From the NCBI GenBank assembly GCA_964631035.1, contig CAZVVX010000005.1:1419-39555 (forward strand): DNA of 38,137 bases, written 5' to 3'. The translations under genes and the position numbers were made by a program. The notes below the pieces were generated by a model. It had not been told where the DNA came from, did not search any database, and worked only from the letters and a program-made list of their open reading frames with translations. Shown one piece after another: positions 1,858-29,164 of this stretch; the first letter of the stretch is position 1, and each line of letters opens with the position of its first letter. Source of the stretch: an uncultured Candidatus Saccharibacteria bacterium. Its GTDB lineage: Bacteria > Patescibacteriota > Minisyncoccia > Phycocordibacterales > PALSA-1337.

Positions 1858-4095
1858 TTATAATTTTTTAGTCTTAATACGAAGTGAATTTGAAACCACA
1901 GACACTGAGGACATGGCCATAGCAAATCCTGCGAATACAGGGTTCAATAACCAACCGAAGATAGGATAGAACACTCCAGCAGCAAGTGGAATACCAACAA
2001 TGTTATATATAAATGCCCAGAATAGATTCTGCTTTATTCCTCTCATAGTTATCTTAGAAAGCTTTATAGCTTTCACTAATTTTGAAATATCACCACCAAG
2101 AAGTGTAATACCAGCGCTCTCAATGGCCACATCTGTTCCTGTACCCATAGCAATACCAACATTCGCCTGAGCAAGAGCAGGAGCATCATTCACACCATCA
2201 CCAGCCATAGCCACAATTCTACCTTGCGCCTGCAATTCTTTAATCTTAGACATCTTATCTTGTGGTAGAACATTTGCAATAATCTCATCAATACCCACCT
2301 GTGAGGCTATATACTTTGCAGTCCTCTCATCATCTCCTGTCAACATAATTACCTTTATGCCCATTTTGTGTAAATTAGTTATTGCATCTTTTGACTCCTT
2401 TTTAACATCATCAGCAACCATTACAAATCCCAAAACCTTTTCTTTATTAGCAATTATAACCGGAGTCTTACCCTGTGATGAATACTCAACAATCTTTGTT
2501 GTATCAAATGAAATTCCTAAATCATCAATCAATCTAACATTACCTATATAATATTCCGCATCATTTACTTTTCCCCTTACTCCTTTACCTTGTATATTAT
2601 CAAAATCTAAGACATCTGAGATAGAAATACTCTTCTCTTTAGCATAATTTACTATTGCATGAGCGATTGGATGTTCTGACTTACTCTCTAGTGATGCAAG
2701 TATTGTGATAAGTTCCGCTTCGCTTAAATTAGATAGATTATTGATATCAATCAAAGTCGGCTTACCTTTAGTTATTGTTCCAGTTTTATCAACTATAACA
2801 GTGTTTACTTTGTGAAGTTCCTCTAGAGTCGCTGCGTCCTTGATAAGAATACCCTCTTTTGCACCCTTACCTACACCAACAATAATCGCTGTGGGTGTAG
2901 CTAGGCCTAAAGCACATGGACAAGCGATAACTAGAATACCTACAAAAGACACGATTCCGTATGACAATGCCTGAGAGAATCCAAGATAAGCAGATCCAAA
3001 TATGAGCCAAGCTCCCAATGTGATAAATGAAATAACTAGAACAATAGGTACAAATATAGATGAGATCTTATCTGCTAGAGCTTGAATTGGTGCCTTACTT
3101 CCTTGCGCATCTTCAACCATTTTTATTATTTGTGATAGCAGGGTTTCAGAGCCAATCTTTGTGGCCTTAAATATAAATGAACTATTAGTATTTATAGTTC
3201 CAGCTACTACATTATCTCCAACATTCTTCTGCACTGGCATTGGTTCTCCTGTAACCATAGACTCATCAACAAATGATTTACCACTTGTAATTTGTCCATC
3301 AACAGGAATCTTTGAACCAGGTTTTATTACAATCAAATCTCCATGTACAACATCATTCACAGAAATTTCAATTTCCTCTCCATCTCTAATAACCAAAGCA
3401 GTTTTTGCTTGTAAATTAAGTAATTTTTTTATGGCATCACCAGTTTTTATTTTTGACCTCGCTTCTAAATATTTACCAATAGTAATAAATGCAACCACAA
3501 CAATAGTTACATCATAATATTGATAATCCACATTTATAAATGGCCTTAGTAAATCTTCAAAAGCAGTTACAGCAAAGCTATATACAAAAGCTGCACTAGT
3601 ACCAATACCAATAAGAGTATCCATATTAGCCTTACCATATTTTATAAAACGATAAAAACCAAGAAGATATGGTTTACCAATTACAAAAAGTGTATAAGTA
3701 GCTAATAAAGGTAGAAGATGATGGAAAAATTCTTCTAATGTATAGTTCATAATAATTTCATTTTTAGAAAGAATATCCCAACCCATCATAAATATAGCAA
3801 TAATTGCAAGAATAATAGAAGGCCATATATTTAATTTGTCAGAATTATCACTTTTAGACATATGATTTGCATGGGGATCATCTTCTGATAGGTCTAAAAT
3901 ATAACCAAGTGGCTCAATCTTTTTAGAGAGATCTGCGGGTGTGATTTTTGAATTATCAAAAGAAACCTTGGCCTTCTCAGCTCCATAGTTTACTTCTACT
4001 AGACTCACTCCTTTAGTTTTTTTCAATGTGCTCTCAATAATACTAGCGCATGAGGCACAATGCATTCCTTTAACTTTATATATTTTTGTATTCAT
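1858..4095 (-). CDS. copA: copper-translocating P1B-type ATPase
   Basis: 745 aa. HMA motif GMHCASCA, membrane CPC motif ([11 protein letters not shown]), phosphorylation site DKTGTIT and hinge GDGVNDAP. Confidence 0.95.
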
Positions 4096-4463: not shown

Positions 4464-5441
4464 ATGGATGTAATGACAAGTAAAATGAAGATTAATTTGG
4501 TTTTGATTATAGTTATTGCATTTATTATTGGATGGTTATCCTCAATATTATATATAAAGTCAAATAATAGTAAGACTCCTAATTCAATCAGACAAAATTC
4601 TCCTGATTTTCAATATATCAATCCCCTACTCTTTGTAGATAATTCAGAAGAGAATTTCTCTGAATACAGACCACTGGAATCAAAAATCAATAAATACATA
4701 GATGATACTGTAGACAAAAATAACGCAAGGAAAGTATCTGTATATTTCAGAGATCTCAATACTTCACATTGGGGAGGTGTAAATGAAAATGAGCTTTATG
4801 CCCCATCAAGTATGCTTAAGGTTGCAATTCTTATTAGTTATTTAAAATTAGCAGAGAAAAATCCTGATATTTTAAATAGAAAATTAGAATATAATTATAA
4901 AGAACAATATCAGGAATACTACAAACCAAACAAGCTAAAAAATGGTAGTTATACTGTTTTGGAAATGTTACAACAAATGATTATAGAGTCTGATAATACA
5001 TCTATGTCTCAGTTGGTCGCACTACATTCAGACGAGATAGTTAAGCTTTATAAGGATTTGAAATTACCAAATATTATTGATTCCAATACTGATTTTATGT
5101 CTACAGAAGATTATTCATATATTTTTAGAACACTTTATAATGCTACATATCTTAGAAAAAATTATTCGGAGCAAGCATTAAAATTATTAACATTTACAAA
5201 ATTTGATAAAGGTATAGTTGGTGGAGTTGGAACAACTACCAAAGTTGCTCATAAATTTGGTGAACATACTATTACATATAATGGCACAGTCACAGAAAGA
5301 CAATTGCATGATTGTGGAATAATTTATTTCCCAAATAAGCCATATTTGTTGTGTATAATGACGAAAGGTGAAGATTTTACAAAACTTGAAACAATAATAT
5401 CTGATTTATCAAGAATAATATTTGATTTTATTAAACAGTAA
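4464..5441 (+). CDS. class A beta-lactamase-related serine hydrolase with an N-terminal membrane anchor
   Basis: SxxK (SMLK), SDN (ESDNTS) and KxG (HKFGE) motifs in the expected order. The ORF track starts at TTG 4431. I prefer ATG 4464, though 4473 or 4485 are also possible. Confidence 0.6.
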   Translation: MDVMTSKMKINLVLIIVIAFIIGWLSSILYIKSNNSKTPNSIRQNSPDFQYINPLLFVDNSEENFSEYRPLESKINKYIDDTVDKNNARKVSVYFRDLNTSHWGGVNENELYAPSSMLKVAILISYLKLAEKNPDILNRKLEYNYKEQYQEYYKPNKLKNGSYTVLEMLQQMIIESDNTSMSQLVALHSDEIVKLYKDLKLPNIIDSNTDFMSTEDYSYIFRTLYNATYLRKNYSEQALKLLTFTKFDKGIVGGVGTTTKVAHKFGEHTITYNGTVTERQLHDCGIIYFPNKPYLLCIMTKGEDFTKLETIISDLSRIIFDFIKQ

Positions 5442-5467
5442 TTTATATAATCTATTCAAAATAAATA

Positions 5468-6115
5468 TTAATTCGCTCCATAACTATCAACCAAATTGAT
5501 AAAGCACATTGTATTCTGACCAACATTGAATGTATTAGATTTCTCAATATTACATTTTACATTTCCTAATAATGCCCACGCTATTCCATTCTTTGTACAG
5601 ACATTATTATTCACAATAGAGCATGTATACTGTATACCAACAAAATCATCAGGTGGTCCGGGTACACAACCCCAATCTATAATATCCTGAGCAGTACAAC
5701 CAGAAGCTAAATCTACAATTTTAGTAAGCTTTGTTGGTTTAATATATGGACGAATATTGTTATTTATTATAGCGATCTCAGTAGCAGGTGTTGAACTATT
5801 AATATAACCACAAATACCTCCAGAATATCCCTCACCCAGACAATTCCAACCAGTAGTCGCAGTAGGATATGTTTTATTATCATTTTTGTATAACTCAAAT
5901 GCTAATACATACTGCCTCATAAGTTGAGTAACATACGAATTATATGCTTTATCTCTTGCCGAACTTACACTAGCCAAAACTACTGATGACAATATAGAAA
6001 TTATTGAAATAACTACCAATAATTCAATTAATGTGAAGCTCTTATCACCTCTAAGAATTTTAGATTTAATTAATTTCTTAAAAATTAGTTTTTTAAAAGA
6101 ATTAATTATACTCAT
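5468..6115 (-). CDS. type IV pilin-like protein, Cys-rich, with a long leader
   Basis: FTLIELLVVISIISILSSVVLA is a class III signal/N-methylation helix with Glu at +5. The leader is 26 aa and ends RGDKS. The globular part has 10 Cys. Its ATG overlaps the uppP stop by 4 nt. Confidence 0.7.
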   Translation of the reverse strand: MSIINSFKKLIFKKLIKSKILRGDKSFTLIELLVVISIISILSSVVLASVSSARDKAYNSYVTQLMRQYVLAFELYKNDNKTYPTATTGWNCLGEGYSGGICGYINSSTPATEIAIINNNIRPYIKPTKLTKIVDLASGCTAQDIIDWGCVPGPPDDFVGIQYTCSIVNNNVCTKNGIAWALLGNVKCNIEKSNTFNVGQNTMCFINLVDSYGAN

Positions 6116-6885
6116 AAATAATAGAAATAAATTAATACGAACACACCAAGAATAATTCTATAGTAAGCGAATAAAGTAAAGTTGTGTAATTTAATATATT
6201 TGATTAGAAATTTAATAACCATAAGTGCCACAACAAATGAGGTCAGAAAACCCAGAGTAAGCAGAATAATTTCACTTCCCCTAATAATAAGACCGTGTTT
6301 TATAAGACCATAACCAGATGCAGCAATCATCGTTGGTATAGCTAGAAAAAATGAGAATTCGACCGCAAGCGATCTAGATGCACCAAGTAATAATGCACCA
6401 ATTATTGTGGATGCAGATCTTGATGTGCCAGGAATCATTGCAAGACATTGTATAAGGCCAATTATAAAAACTTTTTTATATGATATAGAATCTATAGAAT
6501 CGTATTTGACTATATAATTATTCTTTTCAACAACAAGAATAACTATACCTCCAACAATTAAAGATAAAGCAACAGTCCAAAAATTAAATAAAGTCTCTCT
6601 AATATAATCACCAAATACTGCTCCGATAATAAGAGCTGGAATAACTGCGACAAGCACTTTCAACCATACACCAGTATTTATTGGCCATAACTTTTTTCTG
6701 AAATAGAAAATTACTGCAAATATAGCTCCCAACTGAATAAAAATATCAAAAAATTCTGTGAATTGTTTATCAAAATAAATCCATTGATTAAGTAATATTA
6801 AATGTCCTGTCGATGAAATAGGAAGAAACTCTGTTACTCCCTCTATAATACCCAGAAGTACGGATTTAATAATATCAAACAACAT
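6112..6885 (-). CDS. uppP: undecaprenyl-diphosphate phosphatase
   Basis: 257 aa, polytopic. N-terminal GIIEGVTEFLPISSTGHLIL and PGTSRSASTI motifs are characteristic of BacA/UppP. Confidence 0.9.
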   Translation of the reverse strand: MLFDIIKSVLLGIIEGVTEFLPISSTGHLILLNQWIYFDKQFTEFFDIFIQLGAIFAVIFYFRKKLWPINTGVWLKVLVAVIPALIIGAVFGDYIRETLFNFWTVALSLIVGGIVILVVEKNNYIVKYDSIDSISYKKVFIIGLIQCLAMIPGTSRSASTIIGALLLGASRSLAVEFSFFLAIPTMIAASGYGLIKHGLIIRGSEIILLTLGFLTSFVVALMVIKFLIKYIKLHNFTLFAYYRIILGVFVLIYFYYL

Positions 6886-6894
6886 AAATTAATA

Positions 6895-7284
6895 CTAAAA
6901 TGATTGAGATTTAAGTATGCTATCTACTTCTTTAACTATATTTTCAAGACTTTCACTTGATTTTACAATATAACCCTTAACACCAAGAGTTACTGCTTCA
7001 CTTATATAATCAACTGTAGAAAGATTTGATGTTAATAATATAGGAATCTTTGGTATATCCTTATTTAAATTAATTCTTTTAAGAAGTTCAATACCATCAA
7101 CTTTTGGCATTTTGATATCAAGTAAAATTAAATCTGGCTTTTCATTAACTATTTTATTATACCCATCCTCCCCATCAAATGATGAAATAACTGAATATCC
7201 AAGCTCAGCAATCTTTCCTGGCAATAATTTCTGAAATGTCTGATCATCATCAATAATCAATACTTTTTTTGTCTTATTTTCCAT
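6895..7284 (-). CDS. stand-alone response-regulator receiver domain (CheY-like)
   Basis: 129 aa. VLIIDDD acidic pocket, LILLDIKMP phospho-acceptor Asp, conserved T/S and K regions. No output domain. Confidence 0.85.
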   Translation of the reverse strand: MENKTKKVLIIDDDQTFQKLLPGKIAELGYSVISSFDGEDGYNKIVNEKPDLILLDIKMPKVDGIELLKRINLNKDIPKIPILLTSNLSTVDYISEAVTLGVKGYIVKSSESLENIVKEVDSILKSQSF

Positions 7285-23707: not shown

Positions 23708-24217
23708 ATGAATAAAACTGAACCAATTTACATTACTCAATTAAAAGATAGCATCATAAATTTAGATAAGAAATTAGACACCGGCTTTAAACTTATTAAG
23801 CATGATATCGGTGAAATTAAAGTTGATATAACTGGGATGAAGGGTGAGATAACGGGAATTAAAAGTGAGATGATCGAGATGAAGAGTGAAATCACAGAAA
23901 TGAAGGTTGATATTATAAGGATCAAGGAAGACATCATAGATATGAAAGACGATATTAACAAAACTGCTATAACAACAAATGACAATGTTAATAACATCGA
24001 TTGGATTAAGGAGAATATGGTTACAAAAGAAGATATAGCTGATATGGTAACTAAATATGATATTTCCGATATGGCCACAAAAAATGATATTAAACCTATT
24101 TTGAATCTTATAGGTTCATATGAAATTAGATCCAAAAACACTGAAGATATAGTACTTCATGATCATAAGCCTAGAATAATAGATTTAGAAAAAGAAGTTT
24201 TTGCTAAATTATTATAA
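23708..24217 (+). CDS. coiled-coil repeat protein, unknown function
   Basis: 169 aa. Seven consecutive heptads (I/M)K.(D/E)I.. , then three TK.DI.DM-type 9-aa repeats. No TM segment. Confidence 0.6.
   Translation: MNKTEPIYITQLKDSIINLDKKLDTGFKLIKHDIGEIKVDITGMKGEITGIKSEMIEMKSEITEMKVDIIRIKEDIIDMKDDINKTAITTNDNVNNIDWIKENMVTKEDIADMVTKYDISDMATKNDIKPILNLIGSYEIRSKNTEDIVLHDHKPRIIDLEKEVFAKLL
23816..23962 (+). repeat. 7 x 21-nt in-frame tandem repeat (heptad array)
   Basis: Encodes IKVDITG MKGEITG IKSEMIE MKSEITE MKVDIIR IKEDIID MKDDINK. Confidence 0.7.
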
Positions 24218-24342
24218 GTAAATATTAACATATAATCACTATTTTATTATTGAACATTGACATATTAAATTCATTTGATAAACTAATACTACTGACAAGA
24301 AGGGATTCAACAAATCAAAACATTGGTAAATCCAACAAAACT

Positions 24343-24362
24343 CCGCATTCATGCGGTTTTTT
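24343..24362. terminator. bidirectional hairpin terminator
   Basis: CCGCA-TTCA-TGCGG is flanked by an A-run upstream and TTTTTT downstream. On the minus strand it sits about 15 nt after the relic ...KTKWG-stop copy. Confidence 0.55.
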
Positions 24363-24377
24363 GTTTGTCCAATTCCC

Positions 24378-24408
24378 CTACCCCCACTTAGTCTTTGTGT
24401 ATTTTGAT
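24378..24408 (-). repeat. direct repeat copy A: relic of the last codons of the bPH/AlbA_2 gene
   Basis: The 15-nt core CTACCCCCACTTAGT is identical to 25047-25061, and 12 of the next 16 nt match. The minus strand reads S K Y T K T K W G stop. Confidence 0.8.
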
Positions 24409-24410
24409 TT

Positions 24411-24458
24411 TTAAAAAAAGAAAAAACCCGCTGCGACAGGTCTTTCCTGTGCTACGGG
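24411..24458 (-). terminator. rho-independent terminator of the 122-aa cassette gene
   Basis: Imperfect stem CCCGTAGCACAGG-AAAGA-CCTGTCGCAGCGGG (minus-strand reading), followed by TTTTTTCTTTTTTT. Confidence 0.55.
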
Positions 24459-24587
24459 TGATGAACTTAATAAAGTCAAGGAGGTTTTTGAGTTCTCCTC
24501 AATCTTAAGTGGTGTTTTTAGGTAACCACTTCACTACCCTAGAAAGCCCAAGGCAAATGCTCCTTTTTTCAGAACTGTTAGTGTCCA

Positions 24588-24956
24588 CTAAACACCGGTG
24601 CGATTCAGAGTCCCATCAAGGAATCCCCGAACTGCAGCGACGAAGTTTTCACGATTCTTTTCAATGACGTGATCAAATGGGCCTTCAATAGGGTCAACAG
24701 AGAAGCTCATACAAACCAATTCAGGGTTGCATTCGCGTGCCTCCTGAACCATTTCTACAACTCCTTCTTCACTACCAGAAAAGGTTCCGGTGATGAAGAG
24801 TTGGCGTTTGCCAGGCTCCCATTGATCATGGATACCTAACTCATCTCTGAAAATGGAGAAATCCGTATCAACTTGCAAGCCCATTCTTCCGAGTTCTTCA
24901 CAGCAAAACATGAAGCCATGGTGTGATGACTGCATAATAATAATTCTCGGTCTCAT
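24588..24956 (-). CDS. hypothetical protein (cassette cargo)
   Basis: 122-aa ORF with GC-rich codon usage. The alternating beta/alpha hydrophobic pattern (RIIIMQS, LFITGTF, LVCMSFS) suggests a Rossmann/flavodoxin-like fold. No motif recognised. Confidence 0.5.
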   Translation of the reverse strand: MRPRIIIMQSSHHGFMFCCEELGRMGLQVDTDFSIFRDELGIHDQWEPGKRQLFITGTFSGSEEGVVEMVQEARECNPELVCMSFSVDPIEGPFDHVIEKNRENFVAAVRGFLDGTLNRTGV

Positions 24957-25046
24957 AATTCATTGCTGGTTAACTAATCACTCAAGAAACCATGTAAAAC
25001 GCTATCATACTACACTACAAAAGTCAACCCTTGTCCATTTTACCCT

Positions 25047-25077
25047 CTACCCCCACTTAGTTTTTATATATTCTGAT
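25047..25077 (-). repeat. direct repeat copy B: functional 3' end of the bPH/AlbA_2 gene
   Basis: Encodes S E Y I K T K W G stop. The core starts exactly at the stop codon. Confidence 0.8.
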
Positions 25078-26021
25078 GCCTCACTCATTGAGAATGGTTG
25101 TGTAGAGTTACCAACACGCACGAAAAATTCTTCTTTCTTATCACCATCTTTTAGATATGCTGGCTTATGACTTTCTAATACAGTTATCATACAAATATCT
25201 TTACTATCAACCATTTCAAATTTAATATTTATATATTTTGAAAAGTTCAAACCGATCATGGTTTTGATAAGCATACTAATATGATTTTCAAGTCCATCGC
25301 GATTCTTCTTTGGTAAAGTTTTATAATCACTTTCCAAACCCTTAACCACACCATCATCACTAACCCCGATAATCAGGGTTCCGCCAGAAGTATTGAGGAA
25401 TCCCACTATAGTTTTCATCACCACTCTTTCTAGATCTCTACTAACTTCACCTTTTCTAATATCATTTCTAAGTGTTTCTTTAAATTCTACAAACATTCCT
25501 TCACCTTCTTCAATCAAAACTTTTGGATCTCTTGTTAGAACCTTGCCTGATGAACTGTGAACCATCTGTTTAATAACGTGTACATATTCATCAAAATTAG
25601 AAACATTCTTAATCTTGGTTAGTCTGGAATTATTATGCTCAAGTATTATTGTTGCATGATGCATCATTCTACCGACAGGGCTCTGATATACCTCCACAGA
25701 TGCAACATCATGAATATTCACAGATTTCCTCCTTCGGAAAAATAATCCGGATTTTTTTATTATCTCCTTTTCTGATATTTCAAAATGAGAGAAATACCAA
25801 TCCAAGAACAATATAATCATGTATCCAACTTGAAATATTGAAAAAAATAGAATTTCTAAAATATCATATCTAATATATGAAGTAATAGCTGAACCTCTAA
25901 ATAACAATTCATAATTACCAAGATAAGATATAATCACAAAGAAAATAGATGCAATGATTTCCATCACGACAACATTCCTCAAGAAGACCAGAGGTCCTTC
26001 TTTTATAATCATTTTCCTCAT
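25047..26021 (-). CDS. membrane-anchored bPH_2 (YdbT-like PH) domain fused to an AlbA_2/Schlafen-type DNA-binding domain
   Basis: 324 aa. Two N-terminal TM helices, then KKSGLFFRRRKSVNIHDVASVEVYQSPVGR (bacterial PH motif). The C-terminal EGEGMFVEFKETL...IVGFLNTSGGTLIIGVSDDGVVKGL is typical of AlbA_2. Confidence 0.7.
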   Translation of the reverse strand: MRKMIIKEGPLVFLRNVVVMEIIASIFFVIISYLGNYELLFRGSAITSYIRYDILEILFFSIFQVGYMIILFLDWYFSHFEISEKEIIKKSGLFFRRRKSVNIHDVASVEVYQSPVGRMMHHATIILEHNNSRLTKIKNVSNFDEYVHVIKQMVHSSSGKVLTRDPKVLIEEGEGMFVEFKETLRNDIRKGEVSRDLERVVMKTIVGFLNTSGGTLIIGVSDDGVVKGLESDYKTLPKKNRDGLENHISMLIKTMIGLNFSKYINIKFEMVDSKDICMITVLESHKPAYLKDGDKKEEFFVRVGNSTQPFSMSEASEYIKTKWG

Positions 26022-28778: not shown

Positions 28779-29164
28779 TGTCAAATATAACTTTCAATAT
28801 AACAAACACTACAAAAGCCAAGCTTCCTCGCTTGGCTTTTGCTGATATGAAAGATGCAATACTAGGTAAAAAATACGAATTATCATTCATAATTGTAAAC
28901 AAAAAAGAAATTCAAAGACTGAATAAAGAATATAGAGACATAAACAAGCCTACAGATATATTAAGCTTCCCTCTTTCTGAAGATTTTGGAGAAATTTATA
29001 TAAATCCTGATATGACAAAAATAGAAGCTAAAAAATTTGATAGAGATTATGAGAATTTTTTTGGTTTCCTATTTATCCACGGTTTAGTACATTTGAAAGG
29101 ATTCGATCATGGTAGTACAATGGAGAGTATAGAAGCTCGTTTCCGAAAACAATTCGGCATCTGA
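28778..29164 (+). CDS. ybeY: rRNA maturation endoribonuclease YbeY
   Basis: 128 aa. Zinc motif HGLVHLKGFDH. TAATG overlap with rpsU. Confidence 0.9.
   Translation: MSNITFNITNTTKAKLPRLAFADMKDAILGKKYELSFIIVNKKEIQRLNKEYRDINKPTDILSFPLSEDFGEIYINPDMTKIEAKKFDRDYENFFGFLFIHGLVHLKGFDHGSTMESIEARFRKQFGI

Follow-up and report, generated by a model that had tools for sequence, protein, structure and literature searches.

A segment of about 0.65 to 0.67 kb in the window (the whole 38,137-nt stretch of DNA analyzed here) follows the stop codon of a conserved bPH_2/AlbA_2 gene, and the comparison of alleles supports its being an insertion relative to very close relatives. The segment would be a strain-specific accessory transcription unit, made up of a promoter-like module (P1), a leader, an open reading frame (ORF) for a 122-residue protein of predicted receiver fold, a 3' hairpin module, and a terminator (T2). 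It would lie in a low-GC Patescibacteria (CPR, Saccharibacteria-like) chromosome, where two convergent core genes enclose a recombination hot spot, and the imperfect direct repeat of 44/47 nt at its borders would be the scar of one insertion-duplication joining event. We give a probability of roughly 55% to such a one-off insertion-duplication at a recombinase-free hot spot, via short-homology or homology-facilitated illegitimate recombination. This interpretation builds on what the data show: an insertion polymorphism, an empty site, gene content that changes at the hot spot, flanks that are mosaic, and neither att-like features nor, in the window, a recombinase. On our best reading, the event is of a known kind, and the repeat records one insertion event rather than a new type of mobile element.

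The target gene (25047 to 26021, minus strand) encodes 324 residues with Pfam matches to PF03703 (bPH_2; E = 8e-11) and PF04326 (Schlafen/AlbA_2; E = 1.6e-18). It is conserved, with 391 homologs in Patescibacteria metagenome-assembled genomes, mostly of 324 residues, and its 3' end is the part that is duplicated. The exact 15-nt core CTACCCCCACTTAGT occurs twice in the window, at 24378 to 24392 and 25047 to 25061, as an earlier, sequence-only reading had stated, and no other copies were found there. With up to two mismatches allowed, 0.04 matches were expected and two matches occurred in 0 of 100 shuffles; on these figures, a chance origin of the pair was rejected. The alignment of the two regions proposed by that reading gave an ungapped repeat of 34 nt (24375 to 24408 versus 25044 to 25077) with 85% identity, and a gapped one covering 24365 to 24408 (copy A, 44 nt) and 25031 to 25077 (copy B, 47 nt), with 39 of 47 columns identical and a divergence of 17 to 19% between the copies. 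Because a perfect run of at least 15 nt arises in 30% of random placements of the eight differences, the 15-nt core is statistically indistinct from the rest of the repeat.

Both copies are read on the minus strand, and translation bore out what had been claimed for each of them. Copy B comprises the last nine codons, SEYIKTKWG, and a TAG stop, followed by AGGGTAAAATGGACAA; it is the true end of the 324-residue ORF, and its 16-nt coding arm is identical to that of L020, a strain with an empty site. Copy A is a pseudo-tail that still reads SKYTKTKWG-stop and continues with GGGAATTGGACAA. Its K and T stand where 110 of 119 homologs have E or D and 109 of 119 have I. It shares 88.6 to 90% identity with the corresponding junctions of alleles L009 and L023 but only 81% with copy B. 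After its stop codon and before the terminator T1, copy A carries the post-stop sequence of occupied alleles, whereas the empty sites of L010 and L020 have GGTTAATAA or GGTTGATAA at the same place. The motif TGGACAA in copy A is typical of occupied-type junctions, unlike empty sites, and equals the first 7 nt of the promoter module 3' of copy B. The host-like part is the coding arm of copy B, the occupied-type part is the post-stop arm of copy A, and both flanks are mosaic. Neither copy contained dyad symmetry beyond A/T runs. The insert had no terminal inverted repeats, its terminal 70 nt scoring below shuffled controls, and the junction of T2 with copy A (TTTAAAA/ATCAAAA) was without clear microhomology.

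Relatives with the uninterrupted arrangement, for which the sequence-only reading had suggested a search, were found. In L020, L021, L022, and L010, the gene end is followed by 14 nt and then by a T1 identical to that of the window. The bPH gene of L020 to L022 is ~99% identical to that of the window strain outside one 160-nt recombined patch. T1 is a bidirectional hairpin called by a terminator scan at 24341 to 24362, between the convergent genes; with its hairpin CCGCATTCATGCGG at 24343 to 24356 and T-runs on both strands, it is terminator-like for both of them. In the empty-site strains, T1 is the bPH gene's own terminator. The proposal that the hairpin near copy A was the gene's original terminator holds for those strains, but in the window the occupied-type sequence of copy A precedes T1. 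Copy A thus does not appear to be simply the original gene end beside its terminator, since it carries GGGAATTGGACAA and not the empty-site GGTTAATAA. On the other side of T1, a convergent coiled-coil-like gene of 169 residues (23708 to 24217, plus strand) forms the right border of the variable spot, and its orthologs (133 to 166 residues) border the spot in L009, L020 to L022, L046, and L053.

The segment between the cores is richer in GC than its surroundings, as had been noted: 42.5% for 24409 to 25046 and 45% for the 122-residue ORF, compared to 33% for the whole window. Directly 3' of the bPH stop lies P1 (TGGACAAGGGTTGACTTTTGTAGTGTA; 25011 to 25037, minus strand), which L009 and L023 carry in the corresponding position; the L009 island holds another copy at 6901 to 6936. 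P1 would act as a promoter judging from its TTGACT motif only, and a consensus scan made no call there. The 5' leader (24957 to 25010, minus strand) resembles by eye the homolog leaders in L004, L006, and L007, and BLAST similarity to L004, L006, and L008 begins only at about the cargo start codon. The cargo ORF itself occupies 24588 to 24956 on the minus strand. Homologs encode a 16-residue C-terminal extension, Q-WTPPAPK(R/K)EHWPWAL, whereas the window has a TAG and then out-of-frame sequence; in the protein alignment, these ~49 nt (24539 to 24587, minus strand) are the remainder of a decayed extension. DNA similarity to L006 and L008 runs ~125 to 130 nt beyond the cargo stop. The conserved 3' module (24458 to 24531, minus strand) consists of hairpin 1 (24507 to 24531), hairpin 2 (24478 to 24500), and the box GACTTTATTAAGTTCATCAC (24458 to 24477). 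It also lies behind the 122-residue homologs in L004, L006, and L008, and hairpin 2 with the box lies behind unrelated cargo in L023 and L046; the stems of both hairpins are altered on both sides in L004 and L008. T2 (24413 to 24457, minus strand; terminator scan) is a G+C-rich hairpin with its stem at 24419 to 24448, followed by a T-run, and its 23-mer CAGGAAAGACCTGTCGCAGCGGG recurs without change in L009, L023, and L046/47, where the cargo genes ahead of it differ. The insert is a single-gene unit complete in itself, with promoter-like and terminator-like signals of its own. The ORF, the structured 3' region, and the unit's own terminator are all present as first described; of the ~130-nt hairpin-rich 3' untranslated region, the hairpins stand, but the first ~49 nt are the decayed coding extension.

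No Pfam or NCBIfam match was found for the 122-residue protein. Its AF2 model (pLDDT 89.7, pTM 0.86) matched response-regulator receiver domains as the best PDB folds, with TM scores of 0.63 to 0.71 and E values of ~5e-3. The protein has 5 close homologs, and a wider set at E ≤ 1e-3 comprises 156 cluster representatives; neither it nor 36 relatives had a Pfam match, to PF00072 or otherwise. Read by eye, strand 3 ends in ITGTF, without the phospho-acceptor Asp, and strand 1 in QSS. The model predicts an unannotated receiver-like (CheY/flavodoxin fold) protein outside the Response_reg family. The cargo proteins at the same site in L046 (128 residues; weak Response_reg match, E = 1e-4) and L023 (135 residues) were rejected as diverged alleles of it, hhalign and BLASTP having found no similarity. 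Because the cargo and its homolog loci have 40 to 50% GC versus 33% for the host, base composition points to a foreign origin of the cargo. A tRNA, tmRNA, or known RNA as the insertion site was rejected: ARAGORN found two distant tRNAs only and none near the insert, and Rfam gave nothing at the gathering threshold and one chance match alone in 24300 to 25100 at E ≤ 1.

The spot between the core genes was found in at least seven different states across L009, L010, L020 to L023, L045 to L053, and the window. The interval holds 0 nt in L053 and T1 only in L010 and L020 to L022. The window has a single gene there, L023 has two or more before its contig breaks off within the island, and L046/47 and L009 have four or five; in L048 to L052, a Bro-N gene lies directly behind the bPH gene. 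With such different content between the same two core genes, the spot appears, from the alleles compared, to be a recombinase-free hot spot with turnover of gene content between lineages. L009, L046/47, and L048 to L052 carry other cargo, unrelated genes in L009, L046/47, and L048, at the same site and no second core or tail; L009 and L046/47 do so with the same left junction and T2 as the window. Among the alleles that could be scored, the second tail is confined to the window strain (L001 to L003). L023 shares the left-junction and T2 modules, the most of any allele, and could not be scored for the pseudo-tail because its contig ends in T2. Four occupied alleles keep the block TAG-GGGnAAnTGGACAAG at their left junctions, where it leads into three different continuations. 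Short-repeat rearrangements can be seen nearby: L023 has the box AGTTCATCAC on either side of its second gene, and the window has it fused to T2; the Bro-N gene of L046 lies between copies of a 95-nt direct repeat that includes T1. Homologs of the cargo gene in five other genomic contexts (L004 to L008) had no core or tail-like flanks. No convincing target duplications were seen at L004, L006, L007, or L008; L005 has large flanking repeats (~580 nt) of a different nature. Scans guided by the protein yielded only 11 loci each from the genome and the metagenome contig collections, and all loci of the metagenome scan were at most 73% identical, adding no further close alleles.

The flanks differ in their affinities. 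A single 160-nt patch of the bPH gene accounts for 26 of the 34 positions at which the window and L020 differ in this gene, and the left flank is L020-like, with ~99% identity. From copy A to 24249, the identity to L010 is 90.6%. Farther right, 24007 to 24212 is 91% identical to L020, and 24213 to 24329 is unalignable to it; overall, the right flank is 91 to 95% identical, compared to ~99% on the left. We read the flanks as recombination mosaics, apparently produced by homologous recombination in the flanking core genes. No recombinase was found in the insert, in the scanned ORFs of the 38-kb window, or in the annotation of L001, which agrees with the earlier description of an element without one, and no transposase was seen for the insert. 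The window encodes PilB, PilC, and a pseudopilin, and natural competence has been shown experimentally in Saccharibacteria (PMC10633639). Hot spots that lack integrases and change via recombination in the neighboring core genes occur widely, above all in transformable bacteria (PMC5635113), and small variable segments are known to arise by homology-facilitated illegitimate recombination (PMC2884548).

From these observations we infer the mechanism of joining and the direction of transfer. Incoming DNA with an occupied-type junction (bPH tail, stop codon, GGGnAAnTGGACAA, then cassette) would recombine with the resident gene end over short homology, either by a Campbell-type single crossover or by homology-facilitated illegitimate recombination after natural transformation. 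The outcome would be a working gene end, copy B, and a redundant one, copy A, which would later have decayed; subsequent spread between strains would proceed by ordinary homologous recombination in the flanking core genes. Several points weigh against this scheme. No donor molecule or intermediate was observed, the T2/copy A junction offers no clear microhomology, and 47 nt of homology is short for RecA-dependent recombination. The scheme also needs either a recipient whose T1 was already preceded by TGGACAA, and no such allele was found, or one more small rearrangement. A site-specific event would account equally well for the perfect 15-nt block and for the placement of the repeat exactly at the gene end, and L023, the allele sharing most modules, ends before the place expected for a pseudo-tail.

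Such a site-specific event would involve a nonautonomous mini-element, comparable to psiSCC, CIME, or IMEX, mobilized by a recombinase from another part of the genome or from a helper element; we regard this as unlikely. The attP of a circle would mimic the last codons of bPH/AlbA_2, and a crossover within the core ACTAAGTGGGGGTAG would make copy B attL (host arm plus element arm) and copy A attR. The predicted attP junction would be AAAATCAAAATACACAAAGACTAAGTGGGGGTAGAGGGTAAAATGGACAAGG, and a circular, plasmid- or phage-borne form would show the junction T2-ATCAAAATACACAAAGACTAAGTGGGGGTAG-AGGGTAAAATGGACAAGGGTTGAC. The perfect block with diverged arms on both sides that ends exactly at the stop codon, the existence of an empty site, and the constant TAG-GGGnAAnTGGACAAG at the left junctions all agree with this, and the coding arm is that of the empty-site strain in copy B and different in copy A, as a crossover in the core predicts. 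There are also precedents in SCC/psiSCC at rlmH (PMC4723332) and e14 at icd (PMC6379469). However, the attL/attR pair did not recur in independent insertions: attR is absent from the scorable occupied alleles L009 and L046/47 and from every other locus of the cargo family. An empty site should equal the attL host arm, core, and attR host arm; the left arm fits, but the putative right arm, GGGAATTGGACAA, is not the empty-site GGTTAATAA, and the flanks are mosaic. Dyad symmetry, terminal inverted repeats, and a recombinase in the 38-kb window are all absent, and at such identity a perfect run of 15 nt would arise by chance in 30% of cases. Viral contigs held no attP-like form; the 15-mer had 10 matches there without flank similarity, which is the chance level, and the hairpin-2 box and T2 had 0. 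Of the proposed likeness to integration at tRNA 3' ends, the insertion, the empty site, and the intact gene remain, but there is no recurring pseudo-tail, no dyad, no recombinase in the window, and no core at homologs, and a look-alike att site carried by the element is not supported, the pseudo-tail being present in the window strain only among the alleles that could be scored. It is improbable that the insert belongs to a Patescibacteria family of recombinase-less, promoter-to-terminator single-gene modules with conserved noncoding ends (TGGACAAG/P1 and double-hairpin box/T2), inserted or swapped at the exact end of bPH/AlbA_2. The mover may then be a recombinase acting in trans, or the competence/recombination machinery, and the pseudo-tail may be one preserved attR; such a family, if real, would be an SCC-like or integron-like cassette platform in CPR.

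A rather doubtful alternative is that the repeat is the remnant of a larger local duplication, either a tandem copy running from 31 nt before the bPH stop through the cassette or a copy of the bPH region. The second copy would have been mostly lost between short repeats, leaving the 44-nt pseudo-tail fused to T1. Copy A does contain the TGGACAA start of the promoter module, as if an occupied-type junction had been copied and truncated. Short-repeat deletions are evident nearby, for example, in the fusion of the AGTTCATCAC box to T2, and larger duplications surround single genes in L046 (95 nt) and L005 (~580 nt). At least two further events would be needed, however, and no intermediate with two cassette copies was found. 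Copies made in situ begin identical, and yet copy A is closer to L009 and L023 than to copy B. The arrangement might also be an assembly artifact in which sequences of two strains were joined at the shared 15-mer, the source being metagenomic and two contigs with the arrangement stopping soon to the right, at window positions 24248 and 24273. Such an artifact is extremely improbable and was rejected, because three assemblies from three samples (L001, L002, and L003) are 100% identical over both junctions. One of the identical contigs is a 98.9-kb scaffold, the assemblers differ, judged from contig names, the 15-nt repeat is shorter than usual assembly k-mers, and the gene signals of the insert are coherent.

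Several classes of mobile DNA were tried and rejected. Integron cassettes are promoterless ORFs with an attC site (R''-L''...L'-R', GTTRRRY core), arrayed beside intI/attI. The insert has its own promoter-like module and, by eye, no GTTRRRY-bounded imperfect palindrome; Rfam and Pfam returned nothing, and neither the L001 annotation nor the window scan placed an integrase nearby. dif-like sites are 28 bp long, with two 11-bp inverted arms and a 6-bp spacer. The repeat contains no such arms around a 6-bp spacer, and a Xer-dependent module (IMEX, pdif) was rejected. By eye, resemblance to dif is limited to the AT-rich stretch GAATATATA. Insertion sequences and MITEs have terminal inverted repeats (subterminal hairpins in IS200/IS605), together with a short target-site duplication whose copies start out identical. 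With neither such repeats nor a transposase, and with a duplication of 44 to 47 nt that is 17 to 19% diverged, the insert was rejected as a transposon, IS, or MITE.

The locus illustrates cleanly, and on a small scale, how single accessory genes may enter and leave reduced, naturally competent CPR genomes without mobile-element machinery. It also provides a scorable marker (empty, occupied, or differently occupied) between Pth-bPH/AlbA_2 and TypA for recombination among co-occurring strains, and its cargo adds a structurally confident, unannotated receiver-like protein family. If the shared noncoding modules were recombination sites and not expression signals, they would point to a cassette platform undescribed in this group, which the present data do not show.

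Campbell-type insertion-duplication leaves an insert flanked by a direct duplication of the homologous segment, whatever its length, and works without a recombinase or a specific site. Insertion-duplication mutagenesis relies on this principle, which normally calls for at least 100 bp of homology; the window differs in its ~47 bp of homology, and no circular donor is known. Phage 21, a prophage in icd of Escherichia coli, comes with a duplicated gene end and has its own integrase. The element e14 leaves a 163-bp pseudo-3' end of icd (PMC6379469). As in the window, the gene's 3' end is supplied or duplicated, the ORF stays functional, and a pseudo-3' end lies at the far junction, but e14 is a full prophage with an integrase and a 163-bp duplicated end, whereas the window has no integrase and the host side of the displaced copy mismatches the empty site. 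In staphylococci, SCC and psiSCC are bounded by 15-bp direct repeats that correspond to the last codons of rlmH/orfX, and some of the segments lack ccr (PMC4723332). They share with the window an insertion behind the last codons that leaves the gene intact, a 15-bp repeat that re-encodes codons, and a "melting pot" downstream region with some segments devoid of recombinase genes. SCC repeats, however, recur and partition the region, have adjacent inverted repeats, and are served by known Ccr serine recombinases. In the window, the repeat occurs once in one strain, other cargo comes without a second repeat, inverted repeats are lacking, no recombinase is known for it, and the unit measures ~0.65 kb as opposed to kilobases (8.9 kb in the cited example, PMC4723332). 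Given e14 at icd and SCC/psiSCC at rlmH/orfX, tRNA-like logic at a protein-coding gene is not new.

Integrase-free hot spots and small variable segments (Oliveira et al. 2017, PMC5635113; Touzain et al. 2010, PMC2884548) differ from the window in two respects: its repeat of 44 to 47 nt is longer than the usual microhomologies and coincides with a coding end, and the units at its spot share noncoding P1, hairpin box, and T2 around unrelated ORFs. Otherwise, the likeness extends to small, fast-changing content between conserved genes, the lack of a mobility gene, mosaic core-gene flanks, a naturally transformable host group, and short imperfect border repeats.

The window is from a housekeeping region of a low-GC chromosome of Patescibacteria (CPR), where the gene order includes FtsZ, FtsA, YbeY, HisS, signal peptidase, Pth, bPH/AlbA_2, the insert, a convergent coiled-coil gene, TypA, Adk, PilB and PilC. 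The nearest MAGs carry the labels Candidatus Saccharibacteria or Patescibacteria. The insert sits directly behind the stop codon of the bPH gene (25047-26021, minus strand), and the sequence-only reading had taken it for an insertion next to the gene's original terminator. Uninterrupted relatives bear out both points. L020, L021 and L022 have a bPH protein 98% identical to that of the window; in these three and in L010 (84% identical), an identical hairpin terminator, T1 (CCGCATTCATGCGG, 24343-24356), begins 14 nt past the gene end. Relative to these empty sites, the window has ~680 nt in place of 13 nt. The hairpin near the second copy of the gene end (copy A) was thus correctly recognized, but its distance from the copy A stop codon is 21 nt, the earlier figure of ~15 nt having been counted from the start of an A-run at 24362. 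With its T-runs on either strand, T1 serves the convergent 169-aa gene (23708-24217, plus strand) as well. That gene is rich in repeats, both 27-nt tandem units (especially at 24015-24068) and recurring heptad-like (D/E)I..MK motifs; relatives differ in its length (133, 153, 166 and 169 aa), and its segment 23830-24006 lacks a counterpart in L020.

The segment is GC-richer, as claimed (42.5% for the interval and 45% for its ORF; the window as a whole has 33%). It carries one 122-aa ORF (24588-24956, minus strand), followed by a 3' region with hairpins and by a terminator of its own, T2, although the first ~49 nt of the supposed 3' UTR come from a coding tail that has decayed. Neither the insert nor the window ORFs examined yielded an integrase, transposase or other recombinase. 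Over both junctions the sequence is 100% identical in three contigs, each from a different assembly; a chimeric assembly is therefore very unlikely, and an assembly artefact is barely conceivable.

The proposed core repeat, CTACCCCCACTTAGT, is present at 24378-24392 and 25047-25061 and at no third place in the window, even with up to 2 mismatches; 0.04 matches were expected, and none of 100 shuffles contained two. The repeat extends beyond it, with 85% identity over 34 nt without gaps and 39 of 47 identical columns in a gapped alignment of 24365-24408 (copy A) with 25031-25077 (copy B). Since 30% of random placements of 8 differences over 47 columns leave a perfect run of at least 15, the 15-nt core does not stand out statistically within the repeat. 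On the minus strand, copy B reads SEYIKTKWG*, the real end of the 324-aa bPH_2 + Schlafen/AlbA_2 ORF, and copy A reads SKYTKTKWG*, both as described earlier. The K and T of copy A stand where homologs have E/D (110 of 119) and I (109 of 119), which points to a decayed pseudo-end.

Copy A is closer to the junctions of L009 and L023, relatives with extra genes at this site (88.6-90% identity), than to copy B (81%). In such occupied alleles (window, L009, L023 and L046) the stop codon is followed by TAG-GGGnAAnTGGACAAG, beyond which L046 has a different promoter region, whereas empty alleles have TA(G/A)-GGTT(A/G)ATAA. Copy A has the sequence of the occupied type, GGGAATTGGACAA, after which it joins T1. 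It thus appears to be a truncated duplicate of the junction of an occupied allele and, given this GGGAATTGGACAA, probably neither an untouched original gene end nor the attR host arm expected on an L010- or L020-type attB.

The surroundings are mosaic. The bPH gene of the window differs from that of L020 at 34 nucleotides, 26 of which fall within one 160-nt patch (25467-25626), with ~99% identity elsewhere; by this pattern, the patch is a clear candidate for a homologous-recombination tract within a core gene. The left flank of the window is L020-like as far as the gene's last few bases. From copy A to 24249, identity with L010 is 90.6%, while only 79 nt align with L020 (85%) before the alignment resumes at the 169-aa gene (91% identity). 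These mosaic flanks suggest that the arrangement was probably moved between lineages via homologous recombination. L002 and L003, two independent contigs carrying the insert, end at 24248 and 24273, inside the mosaic boundary in the spacer right of T1. The two ends lie within 25 nt of each other, where the window-L020 alignment stops and the window-L010 alignment persists. This suggests co-occurring strains that diverge from there onward.

We compared what lies between the bPH gene and its convergent neighbor across related lineages. This interval is empty in L053, where the stop codons abut, and holds T1 alone in L010 and L020-22. The window has the 122-aa unit; L023 has genes for 135 and 148 aa, its contig ending inside the island, in T2. 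L046/47 contain genes for 128 aa, a HicB-like 82 aa and 58 aa, then T1 and Bro-N; L009 contains 207 aa, Bro-N, 58 aa, 131 aa and 89 aa, and in L048-52 Bro-N follows the bPH gene immediately. By this comparison the interval is a hot spot, and the pseudo-tail appears to be a one-off. When all fetched loci were scanned for motifs, the second tail or core turned up in the window strain only (the L023 contig ends in T2). L009 shares the left junction and T2 with the window; beyond T2 it continues into the sequence found upstream of Bro-N, which in L048 comes directly after the bPH stop codon, with no tail duplication past T2.

Two further features of these loci are recorded here. In L046, a 95-nt direct repeat (3644-3737 and 4695-4783, 81% identical) that begins in the upstream gene's last codons and includes a T1 copy flanks the single Bro-N gene, a second case of gene-end-plus-terminator duplication around one gene; the order there is 58-aa gene then Bro-N, the opposite of L009 and L048. 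By eye, a putative convergent tRNA gene (TGGACCC...TCGAACC) lies just behind the bPH gene in several more distant relatives, namely L010 (~5105-5190), L016, L017/L031/L032 (~100 nt past the stop) and L019 (4965 onward, seemingly overlapping the gene end); the window lineage has none there.

Neither the 122-aa protein nor 36 relatives matched Pfam or NCBIfam, and a profile search with the protein returned 156 cluster representatives (E<=1e-3). Its AlphaFold model is confident (pLDDT 89.7), with response-regulator receiver domains as top PDB matches (TM 0.63-0.71, E ~5e-3). The model predicts a receiver-like protein; by eye, it lacks the phospho-acceptor Asp and the acidic pair. The first cargo gene of L046 (2552-2938, 128 aa) has a weak Response_reg match (E 1e-4), and its product has no detectable sequence similarity to the window protein. 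The GC contents of the ORF and of the homolog loci (40-47%) indicate a foreign origin. Where the ORF has TAG, three homologs have Gln and 16 more residues, Q-WTPPAPK(R/K)EHWPWAL. The DNA past the stop (24539-24590, minus strand) is still recognizably homologous but out of frame, so the window protein has lost its C-terminal end.

Unrelated ORFs at the hot spot and at the cargo-homolog loci are framed by common non-coding pieces. The promoter-like module P1 (TTGACTTTTGTAGTGTA) occurs after the bPH stop in the window, in L009 (twice) and in L023; the leader motif GTTCTTTGAGT is found in L009 and L023 and, with one mismatch, at the homolog loci L004 and L005. The 3' module after the cargo family consists of two short hairpins with CAAAC-containing loops followed by the box GACTTTATTAAGTTCATCAC (window 24458-24531, minus strand; L006 2200-2269; L008 555-616; L004 6440-6500). 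The hairpin-2 box GAGGAG...CTCCTYGACTTTATTAAGTTCATCAC lies behind the cargo family in these four and behind unrelated genes in L023 (5500-5543) and L046 (2950-2986), which have hairpin 2 and the box only. Both stems are altered on both sides in L004 and L008, RNAalifold support from six sequences is weak, and the module has no Rfam match. A 23-nt stretch of T2 is shared without a difference by the window, L009, L023 and L046. In L004 the cargo homolog precedes a homolog of L023's second gene; in L023 a short box, (A/G)GTTCATCAC, stands on both sides of that gene, and in the window this box is fused straight to T2, as if a second gene had been deleted between two boxes. Such features fit local reshuffling through recombination between short stretches held in common. 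They might also be nothing more than conserved expression signals, and a cassette platform of the CPR whose non-coding ends are conserved is improbable. A second P1-like motif, TTGGCTTTTGTAGTGTT (2 mismatches), lies at 28805-28821 (minus strand) inside the YbeY 3' end, just before an 81-aa gene (L001 2136-2152), and at the same position in L009, L010, L020, L023 and L048-51; it may be an ordinary lineage promoter, in which case P1 is not cassette-specific. In L005, the most distant homolog (P0006, 123 aa) lies between ~580-nt direct repeats (5433-6002 and 6420-6995, 81% identical), each with a promoter-like element and a ~100-aa minus-strand gene; the promoter-like element is present a third time at 5113-5148.

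The idea that the insert integrates, as at tRNA 3' ends, by bringing a look-alike of the gene end was not supported. An integrating family carrying such a look-alike should show it repeatedly; it recurs neither in the other fetched alleles nor around the five cargo homologs, which lie in five unrelated contexts (e.g., beside ParB, between DnaK and GrpE, behind an acetyltransferase), with no core or tail-like sequence near any of the five. A site-specific mini-element mobilized in trans is quite unlikely: the second tail is restricted to one strain among the fetched loci, copy A does not fit the attR host arm expected from L010- or L020-type sites, dyad symmetry is absent from both copies, and terminal inverted repeats are absent from the insert. 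That the pseudo-tail is what remains of a larger duplication, later trimmed by deletions, is credible but unlikely. We favor a single insertion-duplication event at a hot spot that lacks a recombinase (probability roughly 0.55), of which the joining step is inferred. Incoming DNA comprising an occupied-type junction and the cassette would have recombined with the resident gene end over ~47 nt of homology, by a Campbell-type single crossover or by homology-facilitated illegitimate recombination following transformation. This would leave one working and one redundant end, and the arrangement could later have spread by homologous recombination in the core flanks. An insertion-duplication agrees with known integrase-free hot spots (PMC5635113), with known small variable segments and homology-facilitated illegitimate recombination (PMC2884548) and with the natural competence of Saccharibacteria (PMC10633639).

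Operation on a protein-coding gene had been set beside integration into tRNA 3' ends; integration at protein-gene ends with resupplied last codons is already established. e14 in icd leaves a pseudo-end of 163 bp (PMC6379469), and SCC/psiSCC regions are split by 15-bp repeats that re-encode the last RlmH residues, with ccr absent from some segments (PMC4723332). The psiSCC layout is like the window's, but the window departs from psiSCC in recurrence, inverted repeats and recombinase, as far as these are testable. We would class the insert as a small variable segment at a hot spot of recombination.
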